Positions 9,534 to 24,014 of a DNA stretch of 64,000 nucleotides are shown one piece after another; position 1 is the stretch's first letter; every line of letters begins with the position of its first letter. The stretch is from Candidatus Enterousia sp. GTDB lineage: Bacteria > Pseudomonadota > Alphaproteobacteria > Rs-D84. The stretch spans positions 52,358 to 116,357 of the forward strand of contig JAZTWM010000001.1 of assembly GCA_045635825.1 (NCBI GenBank), written 5' to 3'. Position numbers and translations under genes: made by a program. The notes beneath the pieces were generated by a model. The model did no database searches. It was not told the DNA's origin and was given only the letters and a program-made list of their open reading frames with translations.

Positions 9534-10934
9534 ATGCCACACCCCGTTTCTGAAGCATACGCACAAGATGTCAGTAACGATAATGACAGCAAAAATCTAA
9601 TCACAATAAATCGTGCATTAGAGGCAGGCCGAATTAACGAACAAGCGGCAGATCATTTGCGTTTTTTGTATTCAGACAGCCTGAAATGGTTTCACGAGGT
9701 GTTTTATATCCTTGGCAAATGTTTCGGTGCACCCAAGACCGGTGTTATGAAATATGATTACGAAACAGACAGTGCCATTGACGAACCGATATCTGTTCGT
9801 GATATTCATCCGCTTCAGGCATATATTGTCCAGCATCGCTTGGATGCAGACCCAATGCGTAATCAGTTTTTTGCCAGTTCTGCCGGTCACAAAATTGATT
9901 TGGCGGTTTCATCCATTGTGACGGTTATTGTTGGTGCACAAAAAAACATTGATCGTGCCTTGGATAAAATTACTGGTAAATACTATGCTTCATATGTTGA
10001 CGAAGTTACCGATACTGTTTTCAAGGTTATCGCATCGCATGAACGCGAGGCATCTGCCCATGCAATCGCAACGAAAATTCGTGAAAAGTTGAATGAAAAA
10101 TACATATCAACACCGGCTGAAACTGTATTGCGTATCATTGGTTCGGGTCATGAACAAATTGCTGCGGATCTGGTACGTGCCTTGGACAAGGTTAAAAAGC
10201 CACGCATGCGTTTGCAGGACGTGTGGCGTGTCAAGTGCCTGTTTGACCTGATCCCTCAGGCCCGAACATTCATTGAACGCATTCAGGCAATGATGCCAGA
10301 ACGTATCTTATCTGTGCGTGATTGTTTTTATAATATGAAAAACCCACGTAATTATCGTGATGCCAAATTGATAATCAATATTGGTCCAGACGCTGATACG
10401 ATTATTCCAATGGAAATAATATGTCAGGTTCGTACATTCTTTGGCTTTGAACGCAAAACACACGATGTGTACGAGGTTTCGCGTAAAAAGAAAAATGCCA
10501 AATCTGAAAGTTTAGAAGCAAGTCTTGCAAATTATTATGAGTGTGGCGTCAAAGAATACAATCGTATGATTTGCGACTGCTTGGAAGATTTGTTTGATCG
10601 TGTTGGCTGGAATATTTTGTATTCCAGAAACAACAACGTTTCAATGTTCGAGGGATTCCCAAAAGAATGCAAATTGTATTACCCACAAAAAATACTGGAT
10701 AATATAAATGAAAAGTTAGATGATGCGATTGAAAATGAAGTATTTAAAATCAAGAACGCACCGTTCAAACTGACACCTGTGCAAGAAAGTGCAATCTTTC
10801 ATTTTATGGCGCGCTTCATTCTGGTTGCTGCGATGCCATATATGCAACATGACTGGGCGATGCCAACGGATTCCCAGGCTGGTAAACTGTTTAACTTTGT
10901 TATGAACGAAGTGCAACGGTACTATAAAAAATAA
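9534..10934 (+). CDS. hypothetical protein; possible divergent RelA/SpoT-like nucleotidyltransferase core
   Basis: Central region ATKIREKLNEK ... LQDVWRVKCLF ... RDCFYNMKNPRNYRDAKLII has spacing reminiscent of RelA_SpoT synthetase motifs (KxxSIxxKL / DxxGxRxI / DYIxxPKxNGYxSLH). The match is weak. Confidence 0.3.
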   Translation: MPHPVSEAYAQDVSNDNDSKNLITINRALEAGRINEQAADHLRFLYSDSLKWFHEVFYILGKCFGAPKTGVMKYDYETDSAIDEPISVRDIHPLQAYIVQHRLDADPMRNQFFASSAGHKIDLAVSSIVTVIVGAQKNIDRALDKITGKYYASYVDEVTDTVFKVIASHEREASAHAIATKIREKLNEKYISTPAETVLRIIGSGHEQIAADLVRALDKVKKPRMRLQDVWRVKCLFDLIPQARTFIERIQAMMPERILSVRDCFYNMKNPRNYRDAKLIINIGPDADTIIPMEIICQVRTFFGFERKTHDVYEVSRKKKNAKSESLEASLANYYECGVKEYNRMICDCLEDLFDRVGWNILYSRNNNVSMFEGFPKECKLYYPQKILDNINEKLDDAIENEVFKIKNAPFKLTPVQESAIFHFMARFILVAAMPYMQHDWAMPTDSQAGKLFNFVMNEVQRYYKK

Positions 10935-10983
10935 ATCTATCCCCCTTTCTTGGTCAAAGGGGGATATTTATGATGTAATCCAT

Positions 10984-11087
10984 AAAAAAAGACGAACAAA
11001 TACCGTTCGCCGAATAAACACATTATATCACAAAACATAGAAAAATCCCAATAAAAAACGTCCCATTTGGGACGTTTGATAATGGGG
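10984..11087. repeat. left copy of a ~105-bp imperfect direct repeat (terminator hairpins plus spacer)
   Basis: About 85% identical to 13230-13333; both copies end in the identical 35-nt AAAAAACGTCCCATTTGGGACGTTTGATAATGGGG. Confidence 0.7.
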
Positions 11088-11273
11088 CCCCATATTTGAC
11101 AGCGTTCTACCCCAAGACGTGCAACAAGTACTTGATTTAGACCCATTGCTGGACGAGGTGTTAGCGGAAATAAAAAATCATACCAGTAAGTTGTGTAACG
11201 TTCCTGATTGATTCAACGTGACCTGTGTATAATGTCATTGACAGACAATATAAATCTAAATAAGATTTGAAGT

Positions 11274-11678
11274 ATGAAGAAGTTATTGTTTGTTTTTTGT
11301 GTGTTTACTGCGTTATCACACGTCGGTTTTGCAAAATCTGATTATATTGCAATGATGCAAAGTTGTGATACAGAATACGAAAATGCCAGCAAACGTGCCA
11401 ATACGACCATAGAAATTGTACAATCAATAGACACGCATACGGAATGCTATAAGGCAATTGTTTCAGAAATAATAACAGCAAAATATAAACAAAACCATGA
11501 AAGCATGTGGAATAATTTTATTCAATATACAGACAGTGCCGCAGATGCGACATCATATATTCAGCGCCCAGATTCTTGTTATCCACAGTGCGGTTCAATC
11601 ATTGGGATAAATGCGGCGACATCAAAATTCGATGCCACCAAACAATACCTGGAACAACTGATGTCGATGAATCAATAA
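11274..11678 (+). CDS. secreted Cys-containing hypothetical protein
   Basis: N-terminal signal peptide MKKLLFVFCVFTALSHVGFA; several Cys; no known motif. Confidence 0.45.
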   Translation: MKKLLFVFCVFTALSHVGFAKSDYIAMMQSCDTEYENASKRANTTIEIVQSIDTHTECYKAIVSEIITAKYKQNHESMWNNFIQYTDSAADATSYIQRPDSCYPQCGSIIGINAATSKFDATKQYLEQLMSMNQ

Positions 11679-12017
11679 TCACTTATCGCGCTGAAAATAA
11701 AACTTACATCCGTCCAAATAGACGTATATCAAATCAGAATTTGCAACATAAAATTTTTCTATTGTGCCTGTATCTTTTTTTACCAGAATTTCTTGTGCGT
11801 TTTCATCAATATCAAAATCGCCGATGGTAATGTTTGCAGCATTGATTTCAACAGCAGTATTTTCATAATAACTTTGCACCATCCAATCGCAATCTGCGGT
11901 TATATATCCAGCATATTCAAATCGGTCAAAAGACCATTTGCCACAGAACTCACAAGATTTGCTGTCTGTAGAGCTACAACCAATCAAAAATACACAAACC
12001 AAAACTATCTTTTTCAT
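11679..12017 (-). CDS. lipoprotein, hypothetical; start trimmed to MKKIVLV
   Basis: MKKIVLVCVFLIGCSS carries a lipobox (LIGC); ~100-aa mature domain with 4 further Cys. Confidence 0.45.
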   Translation of the reverse strand: MKKIVLVCVFLIGCSSTDSKSCEFCGKWSFDRFEYAGYITADCDWMVQSYYENTAVEINAANITIGDFDIDENAQEILVKKDTGTIEKFYVANSDLIYVYLDGCKFYFQRDK

Positions 12018-12049
12018 GCAACACAGTATAAATGATACGATTGTAAAAA

Positions 12050-13189
12050 TCAATATATACCACGTTTATACAAGTTCCATTCATGTTGCCTGCGGTTAAT
12101 TAAACCGTTTGATACTTTTCCCTGGGTGCGATTCCAGGCTTTCCATGCGGATTCCAAATCCGAATAAACAGAGCTATGAAAATCAGGATTGTTTATATAT
12201 TTCACAACCGTAGAATTTTTGAAACCACTTGTACCAATATTATACGCCAAAGATACAAGAGCATCATATTGGGGTTGCGACATTTGTGCTGTAATATTGT
12301 CTTGTACAGCGCGTTCTGCCGTGGCTATATCAGAACGTAATAATGCAATCGCCTGCTGTTCTGTGATTCCGTTTGTAAAATCTTCACCTGGCTTTACCAA
12401 ATGCCCATAACCAATTGTTGCGCCTTTTGGCAAAGGCTCGTTCGTATTTACTGGTTTTTTCGTAGCATCATCATATATAACATGATTGCCCAGCTTGTCT
12501 AACACTCTATCTTCCTTGCCTTTCAACCACTCGATACCTTTATCGCTCATTTTCATATCACTTGCCTTTTGTGTGTCTGGCTTTTGGCCTTTATAAACCT
12601 TGCTGTCTATTTTCTTGCCGTTTTTGTCCAGTTCTATTTCTTCAACCCAACAGCGACAGTTTGGATGAACGGGACAAACAGGTATATCTTCTTTGTTTTC
12701 ATAGACTGTTCCATCGTTCCCCGAACATTCATCGCATGTATTTTCACCATGTTCGCTGTGCCACCGCCATATTTTTGGGGCAATTGCGAATTCTGGAATT
12801 TCCAGTTTATATGTACTCAATTTGTCGTCTGCAATGTAACCGCCCGGCATTAAAACCCTGACTGGTATTGGATCGCCGGGAACAACATATTCTTCGATAT
12901 CAAAATTAAAACCGATTGTTTCAAAGTAATCACCGTATGTGTCCAGGACATCTGCTTCTGCCTCGCTTTTATCGGACTCGAACTCTGCATCTATTTCATG
13001 CTGGGCGTCATAAAACTGTTCCAATGTCATATCGTATTCTGGGCGCATCATACGCCCTGTGGCATCAAATTGCACAGTCCCCGGATATAGGATATTCATA
13101 TACTTGGTTGCCCGCTTGTATGTTTCGCTGGTTTTATCACCGTATTCGGGTGAAGTTATCAGTTCTTGTAAAAATTTTGGTGTTTGCAT
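12050..13189 (-). CDS. fusion of phage MuF-like head-morphogenesis C-terminal region with a GH24 phage-type lysozyme
   Basis: CDECSGNDG..VCPVHPNCRCWV is the MuF C-terminal Cys/His motif. TIGYGHLV..GITEQQAIALLRSDI..YDALVSLAYNIG..GLINRRQHEWNLYKRG is the lambda/P21 R-type lysozyme signature. Confidence 0.65.
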   Translation of the reverse strand: MQTPKFLQELITSPEYGDKTSETYKRATKYMNILYPGTVQFDATGRMMRPEYDMTLEQFYDAQHEIDAEFESDKSEAEADVLDTYGDYFETIGFNFDIEEYVVPGDPIPVRVLMPGGYIADDKLSTYKLEIPEFAIAPKIWRWHSEHGENTCDECSGNDGTVYENKEDIPVCPVHPNCRCWVEEIELDKNGKKIDSKVYKGQKPDTQKASDMKMSDKGIEWLKGKEDRVLDKLGNHVIYDDATKKPVNTNEPLPKGATIGYGHLVKPGEDFTNGITEQQAIALLRSDIATAERAVQDNITAQMSQPQYDALVSLAYNIGTSGFKNSTVVKYINNPDFHSSVYSDLESAWKAWNRTQGKVSNGLINRRQHEWNLYKRGIY

Positions 13190-13229
13190 TTTCTTCCCCC
13201 ATAAAAAAACACCCGCGTGTGCGGGTAAT

Positions 13230-13333
13230 AAAAAAAGACGACCAAATGTCGTCCGCTGAATGTACGTATTATATCATAAAACGCACAGAAAAATCAATAA
13301 AAAACGTCCCATTTGGGACGTTTGATAATGGGG
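13230..13333. repeat. right copy of the ~105-bp imperfect direct repeat; its last 5 nt overlap the 3' end of tRNA-His
   Basis: See left copy; contains hairpins GACGAC-caaat-GTCGTC and ACGTCCCA-ttt-GGGACGT acting as terminators for the minus-strand tRNA. Confidence 0.7.
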
Positions 13334-13406
13334 CGGATAACCGGACTCGAACCGGCGACATTTGGTACCACAAACCAACGCTCTAACCAACTGAGCTATA
13401 TCCGCC
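13329..13406 (-). tRNA. tRNA-His (anticodon GTG) with encoded G-1 and CCA
   Basis: G-GCGGATA..anticodon arm TTGGT-TTGTGGT-ACCAA..T-arm GCCGG-TTCGAGT-CCGGT..TATCCGC-C-CCA; G-1 pairs with C73. Confidence 0.85.
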
Positions 13407-13436
13407 ATACTGTGGGTCATACGACCTGATTTTTTT

Positions 13437-13510
13437 TGGTGGAGCTGATCGGACTCGAACCGACGAGATGCGTGTTGCATGCCATCAAGTGTCCAACCCG
13501 TCCATCAAGG
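13437..13510 (-). pseudogene. partial tRNA-Ala copy (3' ~55 nt: acceptor 3' strand, T-arm, part of anticodon arm); cannot fold as a tRNA
   Basis: First 30 nt TGGTGGAGCTGATCGGACTCGAACCGACGA are identical to the adjacent full tRNA-Ala, and TTGCATGCCAT is shared, but the 5' half diverges and the acceptor stem cannot pair. Confidence 0.6.
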
Positions 13511-13518
13511 TTTTTCTT

Positions 13519-13594
13519 TGGTGGAGCTGATCGGACTCGAACCGACGACCCCTTGCATGCCATGCAAGTGCTCTACCAACTGAGCTACAACCCC
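13519..13594 (-). tRNA. tRNA-Ala (anticodon GGC) with G3:U70 identity pair and encoded CCA
   Basis: GGGGTTGTAGCTCAGTTGGTAGAGCA-CTTGC-ATGGCAT-GCAAG-GGGTC-GTCGGTTCGAGTCCGATCAGCTCCACCA. Confidence 0.85.
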
Positions 13595-13714: not shown

Positions 13715-14731
13715 TTAGTGTTGTGCCTGCGTTTCGTGCAAACTGGCATAAACTTCTTTTGCTTTTTTCTGTGCTGCCTTGACACCGCGACTGAACAAGC
13801 TTGCCTGCATGTTTTTGATTGCGATAATCAACGTTGCGGTTGCGGATTGGTATTTATCCACATCCTTTTTTGCTGTGCCCAATGAATTTACCAGCATTTC
13901 TACAGTTTCTTTTTTTTCTGCTAATTCTGCATTTGCTGTCCCCAACATGGATTCTGCGGTTTCGGCACGTTTACGCAGTTCTGCGGCTTCTGCTGTCAAT
14001 GACTTGATTGAACGTTGGTCTGCGTTTGACATTGTTGGGATGAATTTCTTAAAGTTTGGTGTCAACAATTTGTCTGCATTGTATTCCTGACAAATTCTAT
14101 CATATGTTTTTTGATCTTGTGCGAATACGTGCTTTGCGCAGTCAATAACTGTTTTAGAGATAGTCTGGATTGTTGCCGCAACTGGAATAGTCTGGTCCAG
14201 ACAGTACTGGATTTCTTTGCGTGCCAACTTTTCGACATCCGCAAAGATGATTGCTTTGCTGCCTGGTTCTGAAATATAGACTAATTGCGCCAAATCGTGA
14301 CTTGTTGCATGTTCGCTGGCTGCACACATTTTAATTGCGTTCTTGCCTATGCTGGTTGCGGGGTTAGATGCCGCTTTCAATACTTCGTATACCAGCTTTG
14401 TATCTTTTACGTGTCTTAATGTCAACAGCAATTCCTGCAAAGCGTTTACGTCTTCCTGTTTTTTGGAAAACGCAACGGCTGCGCGCGCCCTATATAACAT
14501 GTTCAAGACGTGCATATCGGCTGCTTGATTTGCTGATGTGCCTTGTGCTGCACGGGCACTACGCATCGCTGCAACGATTGGGGATTTAGAGTTATCAAAC
14601 AACTGTTGATCGTTAAATGCGCTAACTTCGCCTGTAATAAATTTCATCGCTCTTACAGCATCTGAATATTTGCTGCCCAAGAACAATTCCTTAATAGCTT
14701 GTTCGAAATCGAATGAGATTTTGCTATTCAT
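13715..14731 (-). CDS. hypothetical protein with C-terminal coiled coil
   Basis: No known motif. C-terminal 90 aa (AEAAELRKRAETAESMLGTANAELAEKKETVEML...) are coiled-coil-like. Confidence 0.4.
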   Translation of the reverse strand: MNSKISFDFEQAIKELFLGSKYSDAVRAMKFITGEVSAFNDQQLFDNSKSPIVAAMRSARAAQGTSANQAADMHVLNMLYRARAAVAFSKKQEDVNALQELLLTLRHVKDTKLVYEVLKAASNPATSIGKNAIKMCAASEHATSHDLAQLVYISEPGSKAIIFADVEKLARKEIQYCLDQTIPVAATIQTISKTVIDCAKHVFAQDQKTYDRICQEYNADKLLTPNFKKFIPTMSNADQRSIKSLTAEAAELRKRAETAESMLGTANAELAEKKETVEMLVNSLGTAKKDVDKYQSATATLIIAIKNMQASLFSRGVKAAQKKAKEVYASLHETQAQH

Positions 14732-14916: not shown

Positions 14917-16098
14917 TTACAGGCTCTTGCCCATGTCTTCGGCCATTTTTTGATAGTCTTTAACGCCACTGCTGCCCAGACCTGATTTCATGCGTTTTGC
15001 ACCCGCAATCAACCGTTTTAATTTGTCTTCTGTGTTTTCTTTGGACTGACCCAGGCTATCGTTTGCTCGACGCAGGGACTCGTTTTCACGTGTCAATTCT
15101 GCGTTTTGTTGTTTTGCATCCATTAATGCTGTGCGTTCCGCTACTAATTCTTGTTTTGACCTTTCCAGGTTTGCCTGCAATTCTGCCACTTGTTTTTGCA
15201 GTGCATCAATTTTTGCAACATCTGCGGTGGATAATTTTTGCATATATGCCACCGCATCTGGCATTATCAGTTTTTCCATTTTGTATTTATCTACCTGCTC
15301 TTGATACTGTGCACCTGTAATTGCTTTGGCTTGCTGTGCACGATATGCAATTCTTAGTGACGTATCAATCGTACGTTGTACTTCCTGCATATTTGGTGAT
15401 TCTTTGGCTAATTCCTTGGCCAAGAAAGAAGATGTCATTTTGTCTGCGTCTTCATACAGTTTTTGGAATGTTGCCACATCATGCTGTGGTGTAATATAAG
15501 ACAGATATTCCAGGTCATCCACAGTTGCCAATGGGCTGTTTGCACGAAGTGTTATCGCCATTTTTTGACTGGCCGGACTGCTTTCATTTGCAACGCCCCT
15601 GGATAAATATTTCAGCAATTGATGTTTGGTTTCTTCGTTTTGCACTTGATTGAACTTTTGCAACATCATCAATCGCATGTTTTCAATTTCTTTTTCATTT
15701 CTTGGCATCGGTTCCAAGACTTTTATACTTTCCGGCGATAAATAACGAATATCCCTGTTCGTATAAAACAGACGTGATATATTTTTCAGTCTGGCAACAA
15801 AATTTTGTGCTTCTGGTGTGTCTGGATTTTTTCTGACTCTGTTCATGTGATCTATGAAATATACAATTTTCTGTATATATAATTTTTCTGGCCCCGACAT
15901 CCTATCTGATTGCATTTGTTTTTCCAGATTTTCAGTGCCCTTGCTAAAATTGTCCTCCAGGCGTTTATCTGGATGACCACTGGCATACAGACAGGAATCT
16001 GCCCAGAACCCCAGCCCCACAATTGGCAAAAACTCATCGTTTTGCAAAATCAACTCTGCCAAGGTTTCAAGACTCATATATTGTTTTTTGTCTTCCAT
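14917..16098 (-). CDS. hypothetical protein with long C-terminal coiled coil
   Basis: No known motif. C-terminus ALQKQVAELQANLERSKQELVAERTALMDAKQQNAELTRENESLRRAND is a strong heptad coiled coil. Confidence 0.4.
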   Translation of the reverse strand: MEDKKQYMSLETLAELILQNDEFLPIVGLGFWADSCLYASGHPDKRLEDNFSKGTENLEKQMQSDRMSGPEKLYIQKIVYFIDHMNRVRKNPDTPEAQNFVARLKNISRLFYTNRDIRYLSPESIKVLEPMPRNEKEIENMRLMMLQKFNQVQNEETKHQLLKYLSRGVANESSPASQKMAITLRANSPLATVDDLEYLSYITPQHDVATFQKLYEDADKMTSSFLAKELAKESPNMQEVQRTIDTSLRIAYRAQQAKAITGAQYQEQVDKYKMEKLIMPDAVAYMQKLSTADVAKIDALQKQVAELQANLERSKQELVAERTALMDAKQQNAELTRENESLRRANDSLGQSKENTEDKLKRLIAGAKRMKSGLGSSGVKDYQKMAEDMGKSL

Positions 16099-21684: not shown

Positions 21685-21831
21685 ATGAAAAAATTATTCT
21701 TGGGATTCTTTGTTGCACTATGCCTTGCCGGCTGTGGTCAGGTTTATGATCGTGAACCTGTGGGCGTTGGCTTTGACAACAATGAATTAAAGTTAAGCCC
21801 ATGTGCCTGCATCATGGTCTATCAGGCCTAG
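21685..21831 (+). CDS. small lipoprotein (48 aa), VirB7-sized
   Basis: Unlisted ORF MKKLFLGFFVALCLAGCGQVYDREPVGVGFDNNELKLSPCACIMVYQA. Lipobox LAGC; RBS AAAGGGGGAT upstream; directly precedes the VirB8-like genes. Confidence 0.5.
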   Translation: MKKLFLGFFVALCLAGCGQVYDREPVGVGFDNNELKLSPCACIMVYQA

Positions 21832-22561
21832 TGTTATTTTACAATGGGGCAGGGGGGACACATTGGAATATCCAGACGACTTTAATGTACCAACATTTCC
21901 TGCGGGGCCACGTATTGCAACGTCCCGCATGTTTGGTATTGGCATTATGGTTGTTTTGTTTTTAGTTGTTATTGCATGTGGTCTGATACTGTGGGTTCAG
22001 CGTTCCGCCCATGTTCATCCATTTGTTGTTTCTGTAAACCCAATAACCGGTCAATGGGAAGTTGTAGGTCACACCCACTCAGAAAACGGCCAAATGACCA
22101 CAGACCAGGCCTTGCAAGAATCAGTTGTTGGCAAATTTGTCCAAGATTGGTTTGAAATATCTGCTGACACCACAACAAATGATAATATGTGGATGTCATG
22201 CGATTACGCCACAGATTGTTCTTTGGGCAAGAATATCGATGTAAAAATGGGGCGATGTGCATTATTCTGTGTATCTGGCGAAGAGGTTTTTACTCATTTT
22301 ACAGACTCTGTAATCCCCGGTTATCGTGTACGTGTTGAATCGGGGGAAACATGGCATTTTGATATGTCCAGTTTTCAGATAAGTCCGGTTGGTCAATTCA
22401 ATGCAAACGGTGGTTCTTGGCAGATACGTGGCACAATATATTCAAACATTTCTGCCCCAATCAGCATATTAGGCTATGCCATGGTCAAGCGAGAGATGGA
22501 ACGCTATCCTCAAACAATGGGGTATTATGTGTCCGAGTTTAGTGCATACAAGTTAAATTGA
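21803..22561 (+). CDS. VirB8-like bitopic protein (N-terminal segment, one TM, periplasmic NTF2-like domain); start uncertain (alternative ATG at 21929)
   Basis: After the TM, VHPFVVSVNPITGQWEVV matches the VirB8 motif HIPYVITVDRTTGEAGV. DQALQESVVGKFVQDWFEI parallels VirB8 DQAVAQFWASRYVIARESY. Confidence 0.5.
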   Translation: MPASWSIRPSVILQWGRGDTLEYPDDFNVPTFPAGPRIATSRMFGIGIMVVLFLVVIACGLILWVQRSAHVHPFVVSVNPITGQWEVVGHTHSENGQMTTDQALQESVVGKFVQDWFEISADTTTNDNMWMSCDYATDCSLGKNIDVKMGRCALFCVSGEEVFTHFTDSVIPGYRVRVESGETWHFDMSSFQISPVGQFNANGGSWQIRGTIYSNISAPISILGYAMVKREMERYPQTMGYYVSEFSAYKLN

Positions 22562-23211
22562 TGAGAAAGTTGGTACTATTCTTTGTTGGTTTATTGATTT
22601 TGGGTGTCATGTCTGCCACCTTGCTGGTTGCGGGTGTTATTTATGATTCAGGCAATAAAACAGCGGTTGAAGCATATTTTTTCCAGACCGATGATAATTA
22701 TGCCCGCCGTCCGGGTGACATAAAAACCGCCGAAGAGTTTGGTGTCGAAGATATGCGTGTTCAGTTTATATCAAAGTATCTGACCGAATACTTTTTTGTC
22801 TCGCCCGATATCGCACAATTAGAAGCACGCAGTGCCAATCGATCGACCCTTCGTTTAATGTCCTTGATATCGGTTTATAACAAATGGATAGAAACGGTAT
22901 TGCCAGAATTGCGTGAATTGGCTGCTGCACGTGCATTACGTATTGTCAAGGTCACAGATGCCAAGTTTATATCTAAAACCAAACATGGCGAATACTGGCA
23001 GGTTTCATATGATTTAACAACATGGGATGCACCAAATAACTTTTCTGTTGTTCCACGTGTAGAAAGTGCTACCCTGTTTATGGATATATCATATGAACCT
23101 GGGATGCGTGAAACTGTATTGGGTCGGTCCTTGTCCCAATATATGGAATCAGGTGGCGACCCAGCAGTTGCGTTCAAATTCGGGGTTCGTGATATTGTAA
23201 TACAGGAATAA
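22558..23211 (+). CDS. second, more divergent VirB8-like N-anchored periplasmic protein; ATGA-coupled to the previous gene
   Basis: N-terminal TM LVLFFVGLLILGVMSATLLVAG, then AVEAYFFQTDDNYARRPGD ... EDMRVQFISKYLTEYFFVSPD with VirB8-like spacing. Confidence 0.4.
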   Translation: MMRKLVLFFVGLLILGVMSATLLVAGVIYDSGNKTAVEAYFFQTDDNYARRPGDIKTAEEFGVEDMRVQFISKYLTEYFFVSPDIAQLEARSANRSTLRLMSLISVYNKWIETVLPELRELAAARALRIVKVTDAKFISKTKHGEYWQVSYDLTTWDAPNNFSVVPRVESATLFMDISYEPGMRETVLGRSLSQYMESGGDPAVAFKFGVRDIVIQE

Positions 23212-23213
23212 AA

Positions 23214-24014
23214 ATGGCGGGTGTCAACATGCACAATTTGAAGACTATATTTATGTTTGTTTGTTTGTCTGTTATGTCGTGCTTTTGTACATGTGCCAAT
23301 GGTGACAGTTTCGATTTTGATGAATTTGCCATCGAAGACAGTACAGATGTTGATATCACAATGGAAGACGTTGAACTAAACAGCGATGCCGATATTGCGG
23401 ACGTTTCTTCCTTTGATATTGCTGGCATTATGTTGGGTATGTCTTTTGAAGATGTTTATTCACTATTCTTTCGTGAAAATGGGCTGTATGCACCACGTAA
23501 AAAAAATGCTATAATTTATACAATACACCCTGATTGGAAAGTGAACTTGGATTACGAATGTCGTGGCCAGGGTACGGTTATCCCAACAGAACTGGAAAAA
23601 TGTATAAACAGTTTGGCCCGTAATCGTGGATTACTATATGCATCCGAAGTGCATCTGGTACGTGAAAACACAGGTGAAACGATAGTTGTTTATTTCACCA
23701 GTAATGCCAGTGATAACTTGGTATATCGTGTTGTGTATAACAATGATGTAAATGACATAGAAGGGGACGCAGAAAAATTCGTCAAACAGCGCGAGAATAG
23801 AATCCTAAACTTCTGGCAAAGTGTATTGGATAAATATGGTGCCCCCAATTCCGGCACAGACCATTGGATATCCAGTACTAATTCATATGATCCAATGCTG
23901 ATTGCCTACTATGGTGCATTAGATTTAGTGGATAATGGTCGCAATGCATCTGACCTGGCCAAGAATATTCAGGCTGCACGTGAAAACTTTCGGGTTAAAC
24001 CATATGCCTTCTAA
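23214..24014 (+). CDS. secreted acidic hypothetical protein
   Basis: Signal peptide MHNLKTIFMFVCLSVMSCFCTCANG, then a D/E-rich region and a ~200-aa domain with no recognised motif. Confidence 0.4.
   Translation: MAGVNMHNLKTIFMFVCLSVMSCFCTCANGDSFDFDEFAIEDSTDVDITMEDVELNSDADIADVSSFDIAGIMLGMSFEDVYSLFFRENGLYAPRKKNAIIYTIHPDWKVNLDYECRGQGTVIPTELEKCINSLARNRGLLYASEVHLVRENTGETIVVYFTSNASDNLVYRVVYNNDVNDIEGDAEKFVKQRENRILNFWQSVLDKYGAPNSGTDHWISSTNSYDPMLIAYYGALDLVDNGRNASDLAKNIQAARENFRVKPYAF

Follow-up and report, generated by a model that had tools for sequence, protein, structure and literature searches.

The putative effector gene and its two halves

The window studied here is a 64,000-nucleotide stretch of the Candidatus Enterousia sp. 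contig JAZTWM010000001.1 (positions 52,358 to 116,357), and this report concerns one gene in it, which we call the effector gene, together with the small genes that follow it. The effector gene lies on the minus strand at 12050..13189 as a single open reading frame (ORF) with an ATG start and encodes 379 amino acids (aa), with a putative trafficking module at the N-terminus and a GH24 lysozyme at the C-terminus. All motifs listed in an earlier note on this DNA occur in this ORF: CDECSGNDG...VCPVHPNCRCWV spans aa 152-182, and the lysozyme motifs are TIGYGHLV (aa 258-265), EQQAIALLRSDI, YDALVSLAYNIG and GLINRRQHEWNLYKRG. A homologue search returned 398 homologues, and the two-domain architecture is far beyond chance; the AlphaFold model reaches a mean pLDDT of 85.5. 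The setting is chromosomal, between lysS and frr/uppS/bamA, with cdsA, rseP, groEL, ftsH, pnp and others also among the surrounding genes, and a tRNA-His gene (GTG; 13329..13405, minus strand, found with ARAGORN) stands immediately upstream of the effector module. In look-ups, no exact-sequence match was on record for the effector or for the portal gene described further below.

The C-terminal half (aa 212-379; 12053..12556, minus strand) is assigned to the 'KED' subtype of GH24, the phage-type lysozymes. Pfam PF00959 (GH24/Phage_lysozyme) matches aa 257-370 with E=1.4e-29 and 103.4 bits against a cutoff of 22.3, and PDB profile matches run from 7.8e-25 down to 1e-10, including 6et6, 9kbs, 2anv, 3hde and 4zpu. 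The best solved relatives are an Acinetobacter lysozyme (6et6, 6.5e-18), P22 lysozyme (2anv) and P21 R (3hde/3hdf). E226, D241 and T258 do not vary among the 49 aligned homologues, and the HMM alignment pairs T258 with T31 of P22 lysozyme (2anv). Insertions of ~6 and ~11 residues relative to P22 lysozyme stop HMMER from aligning the stretch with E226 and D241; these two residues were therefore assigned by eye from the motifs GIxxLKxxE and YDD, which we take to correspond to E16 and D25 of P22 lysozyme. The putative catalytic Glu-Asp-Thr triad of P22/T4-type lysozymes is thus present as E226/D241/T258. Judged by its sequence, the C-terminal half is a genuine GH24 domain of the phage lysozyme type, and it is intact, as the earlier note had suggested.

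The N-terminal module (aa 1-205; 12575..13189, minus strand) is full-length and family-specific. Its homologues begin alike with M(Q/K)TPKFL (MQTPKFL in the window) and are conserved at 45-88% identity in ~50 genomes; Y30, G45, F59, V112, W143, C152, C155, H175, N177 and C180 are invariant and C178 nearly so. No relaxed selection and no frequent frameshifts were seen in the module among the loci examined. The suspicion that the gene could be a truncated remnant did not hold up, because the 205-aa module is full-length, with the same start in ~50 genomes. A frame-shifted MuF N-terminal portion upstream was looked for and none was found: a Shine-Dalgarno-like stretch, GGGGGAAG, stands directly 5' of the ATG, and the 140 nt 5' of the start hold this ribosome-binding site (RBS), terminator-like hairpins and tRNA-His, the latter two leaving no room for such a portion. 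In the predicted structure (pLDDT 84) the module opens with a small helical head and continues as an acidic helix of 37 residues (aa 56-92) and a beta-sandwich (aa 102-145); the zinc knuckle and a beta-hairpin complete it. Its extreme N-terminus is predicted to be helical with pLDDT 70-80. Because the N-terminus is hydrophilic (MQTPKFLQELITSPEYGDK...), the protein is taken to have no signal peptide. As for secretion markers, the module carries no signal peptide, no T5, T6 or T7 marker and no PDB fold match; a MuF-type knuckle alone is recognisable.

This MuF-type zinc knuckle (aa 139-182; 12644..12775, minus strand) reads IWRWHSE..C152xxC155...PVH175PNC178RC180W and carries the motif W.W...C/D-x2-C/H...P.HPNCRC. 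The N-terminal half had previously been described as ending in the MuF/SPP1 gp7 signature, and to this extent the description is right, since the knuckle motif does stand at the end of that half. Membership of the MuF family does not follow. PF04233 matches with E=3.3e-5 and 25.0 bits, below its cutoff of 29.6, over profile positions 62-111 of 112 only, and TIGR01641 reaches 22.9 bits, below its threshold of 39.65. Seven head-morphogenesis or minor-head PHROG families (595, 115, 1657, 4728, 2841, 7625 and 241, including a 'minor head protein and DNA pilot') match aa ~139-200 at 1e-4 to 3e-9. The matched stretch begins at about position 240-270 of profiles that are 337-679 long, and the preceding ~250 residues of the phage MuF protein are therefore absent; ~50 of its >250 residues are represented in the effector. 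Two of the profiles run on into the lysozyme region (phrog_4728 aligns to aa 139-368, phrog_2841 to aa 141-288), which suggests that MuF-lysozyme fusions occur in phages.

Fold and remote-homology searches agree on where the likeness ends. The best BFVD fold matches are minor capsid and head morphogenesis proteins with 43-66 aligned columns and a probability of 0.97-0.99, at E-values of only 0.04-0.1, and the knuckle is the sole part of the module that aligns. Among 63 remote sequence relatives of the knuckle stretch, 46 match PF04233 (best 1.8e-18), and such relatives are fused to M23, GH24, GH108, M15, pesticin-like (two relatives) or Tlde1 domains. A PDB sequence profile search with the N-terminal module gave nothing below E=0.6, and for residues 1-135 no relative of known fold was detectable. 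The knuckle is thus, as far as these comparisons reach, the only part of the module related to phage minor head and head-morphogenesis proteins. As a separate observation, 12 of the 63 remote knuckle relatives (within P0144-P0268) also carry Serum amyloid A (PF00277; best E=5e-25), an unexpected pairing.

Exchange of C-terminal enzymes and co-varying partner genes

A scan of species-representative genomes with the N-terminal module as single-protein query gave 59 loci, all of them in Candidatus Enterousia or in metagenome-assembled genomes of uncultured gut or rumen Alphaproteobacteria; one or two copies of the effector system are found per genome in this lineage. The corresponding IMG/VR scan found no relative of the module on any viral contig. 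C-terminal classes and downstream genes were counted on 50 full-length effectors from 50 species-level genome loci. Tlde1/YkuD domains account for 18 of them, GH24 for 17 (the class of the window effector), GH108 with PG_binding_3 for 8 and Lys2, a divergent T4-like lysozyme, for 7. The GH24 class splits into two subtypes, KED with the motif LKxKE(D/Y)..LDK, which includes the window effector, and EG with the motif LKxxEGxV. Members of the wider family add Peptidase_M23 and PG_binding_1 domains, and every C-terminal domain found acts on peptidoglycan.

Similarity of the two halves does not run in parallel. Effectors of different C-terminal classes have N-termini that are 83-88% identical, and effectors of the same GH24 class can have N-termini that share only 47-55%. 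Compared with the window effector, P0002-P0005 show 69-73% identity in the N-terminal and 83-96% in the C-terminal part, P0006-P0009 show 77-88% and 51-52%, and P0078 and others show 86% with no C-terminal match at all. In the homologue list the window N-terminus is found at 74-86% identity, over 55-63% of the query, joined to GH108 or YkuD/Tlde1. Across these alignments the N- and C-terminal identities are uncoupled, and the uncoupling falls at a linker (aa 197-216, SKVYKGQKPDTQKASD-MKMSD; 12542..12601, minus strand), which we regard as the exchange point of the C-terminal domains. The linker consensus SKVYKGQKP..QKxSD-MK is common to three classes, including GH108 and Lys2 (...QK.SDMK). Its M212 is invariant and equals the start codon of free-standing orphan lysozyme ORFs in related loci. 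We conclude that the C-terminal domains have evidently been exchanged by recombination after this conserved linker.

Traces of such exchanges are visible downstream of several effector genes. Locus L001 carries a Tlde1-type effector at the same frr-uppS-bamA site as the window, and its gene order is effector, multi-transmembrane (multi-TM) partner, Tlde1 C-terminal fragment, linker remnant QKVSD, a free-standing 168-aa lysozyme and a c1 lipoprotein. This lysozyme is 96% identical to aa 212-379 of the window effector, and the remnant QKVSD/MKMSD stands just before it. Further orphan GH24 cassettes lie in L048, L053, L055 and L060, orphan GH108 cassettes in L023, L033 and L034, and lone c1 genes after GH108 modules in L010, L027, L031 and L044; L030 holds a deletion chimera of N-terminus and C-terminus. 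From these gene orders it is apparent that displaced cassettes of enzyme and partner persist downstream as orphans.

The window module is also flanked by a repeat. Two copies of a 107-nt direct repeat, D1, bracket the effector and its two immunity-type genes (11274-13189). The left copy (13228..13334) starts at the last bases of tRNA-His and contains a promoter-like site (TTGATT-18-TATAAT) and two hairpins, one of them a terminator hairpin; the right copy (10982..11088) is 84% identical and lies 2246 bp apart. The element also occurs downstream of the effector loci L023 and L026, where it showed up as a conserved but spurious ORF (cluster c14). On the minus strand, 13210-13297 reads as a strong promoter-like TTGATT-18-TATAAT site with an extended TG, followed by terminator-like hairpins at 13254-13236 and 13227-13210 before the effector start. 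The promoter-like site and the two hairpins may form an attenuator-type leader, or may simply be part of the 107-nt repeat.

The gene that follows the effector depends on the enzyme class. The first downstream gene is class-specific in 48 of the 50 loci, and none of 100,000 label permutations reaches that figure, a value that overstates independence because the 50 loci are phylogenetically related; N-terminal similarity, for its part, cuts across the C-terminal classes. Tlde1 effectors are followed by same-strand multi-TM proteins of 99-118 aa that belong to four families and often stand in arrays (18/18). GH108 effectors are followed by a convergent secreted protein of ~144 aa, c5 (7/8), and Lys2 effectors by a convergent lipoprotein of 312-345 aa, c8 (7/7). 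Within GH24 the partner tracks the subtype: the ~112-aa lipoprotein c1 follows KED effectors (8/8 of those with downstream sequence), and a convergent secreted protein of ~135-145 aa, c0, follows EG effectors (8/8), none of which is followed by c1. All partner genes are predicted to encode signal peptides, lipoboxes or transmembrane helices, and this envelope location fits the site where cell-wall enzymes act. The genes occur in arrays of up to four families. They have no Pfam, PDB or annotated homologues, and no known lysozyme-inhibitor or immunity family was matched.

In the window c1 lies at 11679..12017 on the minus strand, with its ATG ~30 nt past the effector stop codon. It encodes a 112-aa lipoprotein with the lipobox MKKIVLVCVFLIGC/SS (FLIGC) and several conserved Cys, has no Pfam or PDB relative, and reappears after the orphan KED lysozyme of L001, where it is 83% identical to the window copy. 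We read c1 as the candidate cognate immunity gene of the window effector. The second immunity-type gene, c0 (11274..11678, plus strand), is convergent with the effector operon and encodes a secreted protein of 134 aa with a predicted signal peptide, MKKLLFVFCVFTALSHVGFA/K (ending GFA/K), and four conserved Cys. It is lineage-restricted (28 matches), again with no Pfam or PDB relative, and shares 34-37% identity with the ORFs, likewise convergent, that come directly after the effectors of EG subtype in L004, L006 and L008. Since c0 partners the sister EG subtype, the window copy is read as an extra (orphan) immunity gene; it comes after c1 here as in L011 and L025, and in all three places it is probably an additional candidate immunity gene against the EG subtype.

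A constant N-terminus with variable C-termini, a co-varying adjacent gene and downstream orphan cassettes are among the features by which polymorphic toxins are recognised (Zhang et al. 2012), and by these comparisons these three are found here. The architecture that the earlier note had called MuF-polymorphic-toxin-like was therefore essentially right, as C-terminal enzyme classes are swapped on a constant N-terminus. That note had made no mention of the most informative features, namely the candidate cognate immunity genes, the orphan cassettes and the repeat on either side of the module. We consider it likely that the effector is an intact member of a polymorphic, peptidoglycan-targeting antibacterial effector-immunity family of Enterousia and related reduced-genome gut Alphaproteobacteria. 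In such a system the GH24 domain would cleave the glycan strands of the peptidoglycan of a target cell from the periplasmic side, and the 112-aa lipoprotein c1 would bind and inhibit the lysozyme, so that the producer and its kin are protected. The convergent 134-aa c0 would protect against the sister lysozyme subtype of neighbours, and the N-terminal module would serve as the trafficking domain. The family would diversify by recombination at the linker, with the displaced cassettes held as a reservoir.

Delivery route and neighbouring genes

The search for a delivery route covered ~40 window proteins. Neither these nor the annotated loci L001, L004, L006 and L008 contained Hcp, VgrG, PAAR, MIX/FIX or other type VI secretion system (T6SS) markers. 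The only secretion-type match in the window set is a VirB8-like protein (PF04335, 2e-9) after bamA. It is the first of three genes at 21803-24014, followed by proteins of 217 aa and 266 aa with no Pfam match, and the trio is kept after bamA elsewhere in Enterousia, in 16-19 further loci (the VirB8-like protein in 19). The three genes could encode an envelope complex or derive from a type IV secretion system (T4SS). We do not invoke a T4SS as a route for the effector, the VirB8-like match being insufficient and a T4SS signal being expected at the C-terminus.

At its left edge the window holds a T7-type portal gene (28-1266; 2e-82), small ORFs beside it (1263-1466 and 1463-1699) and an Mtd_N-type fibre protein gene (1728-2234). 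This interval, 28-2234, is the end of a compact T7-type head/tail cluster of ~10 kb. Portal relatives that are 72-86% identical were found on >50 IMG/VR contigs (loci L069-L122), where the gene order is almost invariant: capsid (PF19821), p76, tail tube A, tube B (phrog_376), p115 and the ATPase part of the terminase; then p212, a (double-)HTH protein and DnaB on the opposite strand; and finally the nuclease part of the terminase, the portal and small ORFs (a fibre protein in some), after which host polysaccharide genes follow. The cluster terminase appears to be split around the dnaB block. We found no recognisable ejection, core or lysis proteins and no hydrolase in the cluster, which could be a domesticated element resembling a gene transfer agent (GTA) or a very small prophage. 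In L121, which holds a more distant relative of the cluster (portal 56% identical), a free-standing GH24 lysozyme (11517-11981), 52% identical to the C-terminal domain of the window effector, stands directly after the portal and a small ORF. We saw no other physical link between the cluster and a lysozyme gene.

Two further groups of genes near effector loci deserve mention. The first is c13, a 201-aa Enterousia protein in which an N-terminal endolysin-like domain (AWRNNNPGNL; PDB 7q47, Gp29 of 9vvp; phrog_873) precedes a MuF motif that passes the Pfam cutoff with 38.9 bits. Followed directly by a ~200-aa lipoprotein-like gene, it lies near effector loci in L019 (2165-3251), L027 (12335-13421), L030 (9161-10244) and L044 (12794-13880), and the two are possibly another effector-immunity pair. 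The second group consists of Mtd_N or phage tail-fibre N-terminal proteins of ~160-220 aa, which are found 4-10 kb from effector loci in seven other genomes (L010 3666-4259, L019 5689-6255, L022 5105-5671, L023 15879-16445, L027 19718-20197, L037 4333-4998 and L068 4976-5605). Conservation is confined to their first ~50 residues and suggests that the receptor-binding tips vary.

The only functional clue to the route is the MuF-type knuckle, which in phages belongs to minor head proteins inside the capsid. Capsids of the T7-like cluster could conceivably be loaded with effectors, since we recognise among the products of the cluster neither ejection or core proteins nor a hydrolase, and none of them has a MuF motif. 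Our preferred guess, and a tentative one, is that the effector is loaded into a phage-like particle via the MuF-type knuckle; a bacteriocin-like release and import or an unrecognised secretion route is about as likely. Taken further, the MuF-knuckle effectors might be the protein cargo of a domesticated, dispersed podovirus-like particle that is fired at competitors or host bacteria, a speculation to which we give little credence. In such a particle the ~10-kb T7-type cluster would supply capsid, tail tube, split terminase and portal, the Mtd_N-type proteins would supply the fibres, and the periplasmic immunity proteins would decide which cells survive capsids that carry interchangeable cell-wall enzymes. 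If true, this would be a capsid-based protein-delivery weapon and the first tractable case of a route long hypothesised for MuF toxins.

The remaining features of the locus are as follows. A tRNA-Ala gene (13519-13594, ARAGORN) stands beyond tRNA-His, and between the two lies a 37-nt copy of its 3' part (13430-13466 versus 13512-13548, 97% identical), which looks like an att-type duplication scar left by an earlier integration or excision at the tRNA cluster. Two coiled-coil-rich paralogues with 27% identity (338 aa at 13715-14731 and 393 aa at 14917-16098, both on the minus strand) lie between the tRNA cluster and frr and have no family match. Because the same interval of L001 holds the tRNA region only, this stretch is strain-variable. 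Between lysS and the immunity genes, 9534-10934 encodes a 466-aa protein with no Pfam or PHROG match that recurs at 64-66% identity in three further effector loci, L048, L051 and L058.

Alternative readings and relation to known systems

Besides the relatedness of the 50 loci mentioned above, several points weigh against an effector-immunity family. No secretion-system genes adjoin the effector in the window or in the four annotated loci. Among the genome loci fetched, the effector loci are unlinked to the head/tail cluster, the portal being within 11 kb in this window only. No MuF-motif protein was found when the T7-like cluster was searched for one, and T7-type phages are not known to use MuF. 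Outside the ~50-residue knuckle, PDB sequence and fold searches gave no relative of known function for the module. Finally, the term immunity draws on position, co-variation and predicted location, because the partner families have no known relatives.

Among the alternatives, the effector could be a pesticin-like soluble bacteriocin, with a module that binds an outer-membrane receptor and drives import into the periplasm of related cells, where the C-terminal enzyme kills and the partner protein confers immunity, and with a knuckle that is just a structural zinc site. Pesticin with its immunity protein Pim and related lysozyme-type bacteriocins combine an N-terminal uptake or targeting part with a C-terminal muramidase of phage-lysozyme fold, and their immunity is periplasmic. 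The logic is the same here: a two-part protein with a possible uptake part and a phage-lysozyme-type domain, accompanied by a candidate immunity protein of the periplasm. A lysozyme domain of Pesticin type is present in two of the remote knuckle relatives, and all cargo acts in the periplasm, as expected if import ends there. However, the effector gives no PF16754 match and has no plasmid context, and its N-terminus, predicted to be helical, shows no evident disordered stretch of the TonB-box type. No lysis or release gene was seen, the module is dissimilar to known receptor-binding and translocation domains, and the family differs from pesticin in that it exchanges its killing domain among four enzyme folds. 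We regard this alternative as unlikely.

Alternatively, the effector could be a virion or GTA-type ejection protein that is packaged via the knuckle in particles of the T7-like cluster and opens the wall of the recipient for DNA entry; its periplasmic partners would then be superinfection-exclusion factors against incoming particles. Several observations fit. The knuckle matches PHROGs for head morphogenesis and for a 'minor head protein and DNA pilot', the fused lysozyme, GH108, M23 and M15 domains are the typical set of virion-associated hydrolases, the T7-like cluster has no internal-core or ejection proteins and no hydrolase, and the effector has no signal peptide. T7 gp16 is a virion-associated peptidoglycan hydrolase, and the cargo of such proteins likewise acts on the wall of the recipient. 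The phage minor head-lysozyme profiles PHROG 4728 and 2841 also resemble the effector, with a MuF knuckle and then a lysozyme-like region; in these, however, the knuckle stands ~250 residues into a MuF protein of 525-591 positions that is encoded in phage genomes. Neither such proteins nor virion hydrolases are known to come with immunity genes or cassette polymorphism, and arrays of immunity genes, lone immunity genes and orphan enzyme cassettes are hallmarks of antagonism rather than of an entry enzyme. A Tlde1-type cross-link editor, moreover, would be an odd choice for making a hole in the wall. A phage context, as implied by the earlier note, is not supported either: the neighbours are chromosomal, the precomputed Pfam annotation of L001, L004, L006 and L008 shows no phage genes next to the effector, the scan of IMG/VR viral contigs was negative for the module, and among the 59 scanned loci no other fetched genome locus has a homologue of the window portal within 10 kb. 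We think an ejection protein unlikely.

A third possibility is that the system is aimed at a host or prey bacterium, the enzyme opening the wall of the partner for metabolites and the immunity genes merely preventing self-damage. An obligate symbiotic or parasitic life has been proposed for Rs-D84/Enterousia (PMC12306168), and the system is nevertheless retained in one or two copies. Subtype-specific immunity, extra non-self immunity genes and rapid swapping of cassettes, however, point to conflict among close relatives, and a weapon of this kind is in our view quite unlikely.

It is very improbable that the gene is a decayed phage MuF gene that has lost its N-terminus and left an endolysin on a MuF tail, or an endolysin within a holin/spanin lysis cassette for particle release: although only the last ~50 MuF profile positions are matched, and small membrane proteins after Tlde1 and a lipoprotein after the lysozyme look superficially holin- and spanin-like, the module is full-length, confidently folded and conserved with invariant residues, the 5' end is intact with an RBS and tRNA-His upstream, and the partners are often convergent, secreted rather than pore-like, arranged in arrays and matched to enzyme subtype. 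For the partner genes themselves, we reject a holin/spanin reading on the grounds of orientation, predicted location, arrays and subtype specificity.

With the effector-immunity reading thus preferred, the closest described systems are the MuF polymorphic toxins of temperate phages (Zhang et al. 2012, PMC3482391; Jamet et al. 2017, PMC5576092), for which delivery through the phage head has been proposed. As in the effector family, a MuF motif stands N-terminally, the toxic C-terminus is variable and a small downstream ORF is the candidate for immunity. The differences are considerable. MuF toxins have a complete MuF domain, sit beside portal and terminase genes in prophages, and are mostly found in Firmicutes with cargo that acts in the cytoplasm (nucleases, ADP-ribosyltransferases), whereas the effector has ~50 residues of the domain, below the family cutoff, is chromosomal and unlinked to head genes, and belongs to a family whose cargo acts on peptidoglycan throughout. 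Unlike MuF toxins, this family also has periplasmic or membrane immunity proteins and orphan cassettes. The words lysozyme, peptidoglycan, Alphaproteobacteria and orphan are absent from the text of Jamet et al. 2017 (PMC5576092), and full-text literature searches that paired MuF with Tlde1 or peptidoglycan hydrolase found nothing comparable.

Two other groups of antagonistic systems share parts of the design. Cell-wall effectors of the T6SS come with cognate immunity proteins, as in the pairs Tlde1-Tldi1, Tge-Tgi and Tae-Tai. The enzyme classes that act in the periplasm are the same, including a Tlde1-type domain on the same module (Pfam PF10908, 'Tlde1_dom'), and periplasmic immunity genes are adjacent. 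The effector module, however, is unrelated to known T6SS adaptor domains, the window proteins scanned contain no T6SS marker, and a T6SS is unlikely in this lineage because its genomes are <1 Mb. Contact-dependent growth inhibition (CDI; CdiA-CT/CdiI), Rhs and MafB toxins leave the cell by defined routes (T5SS, T6SS, Sec) and are filamentous or repeat proteins of very large size. They resemble the effector family in their conserved junction motif for C-terminal swaps, in displaced cassettes of C-terminus and immunity gene and in lone immunity genes; the effectors described here are, in contrast, compact (370-430 aa) and of cytoplasmic type, and no export signal is recognised in them. The basis on which polymorphic toxins are classified is the N-terminal trafficking domain. 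The effector fits no described class, and both its trafficking module and the candidate immunity families, at least seven in number, are new.

Genomes of the order Rs-D84 are <1 Mb and have neither respiration nor standard transporters, and these bacteria have been proposed to live off other cells (PMC12306168). That so reduced a lineage keeps one or two copies of the system together with arrays of immunity genes implies that cell-wall warfare is strongly selected for. Inhibitors of GH24, GH108 and Tlde1-type enzymes may be found among the immunity families, of which there are at least seven, all uncharacterised, and the pairing of KED with c1 and of EG with c0 offers a natural experiment in subtype-specific lysozyme inhibition. 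The effector family as a whole may also help to decide whether proteins are really sent to phage-like capsids by a MuF-type motif.

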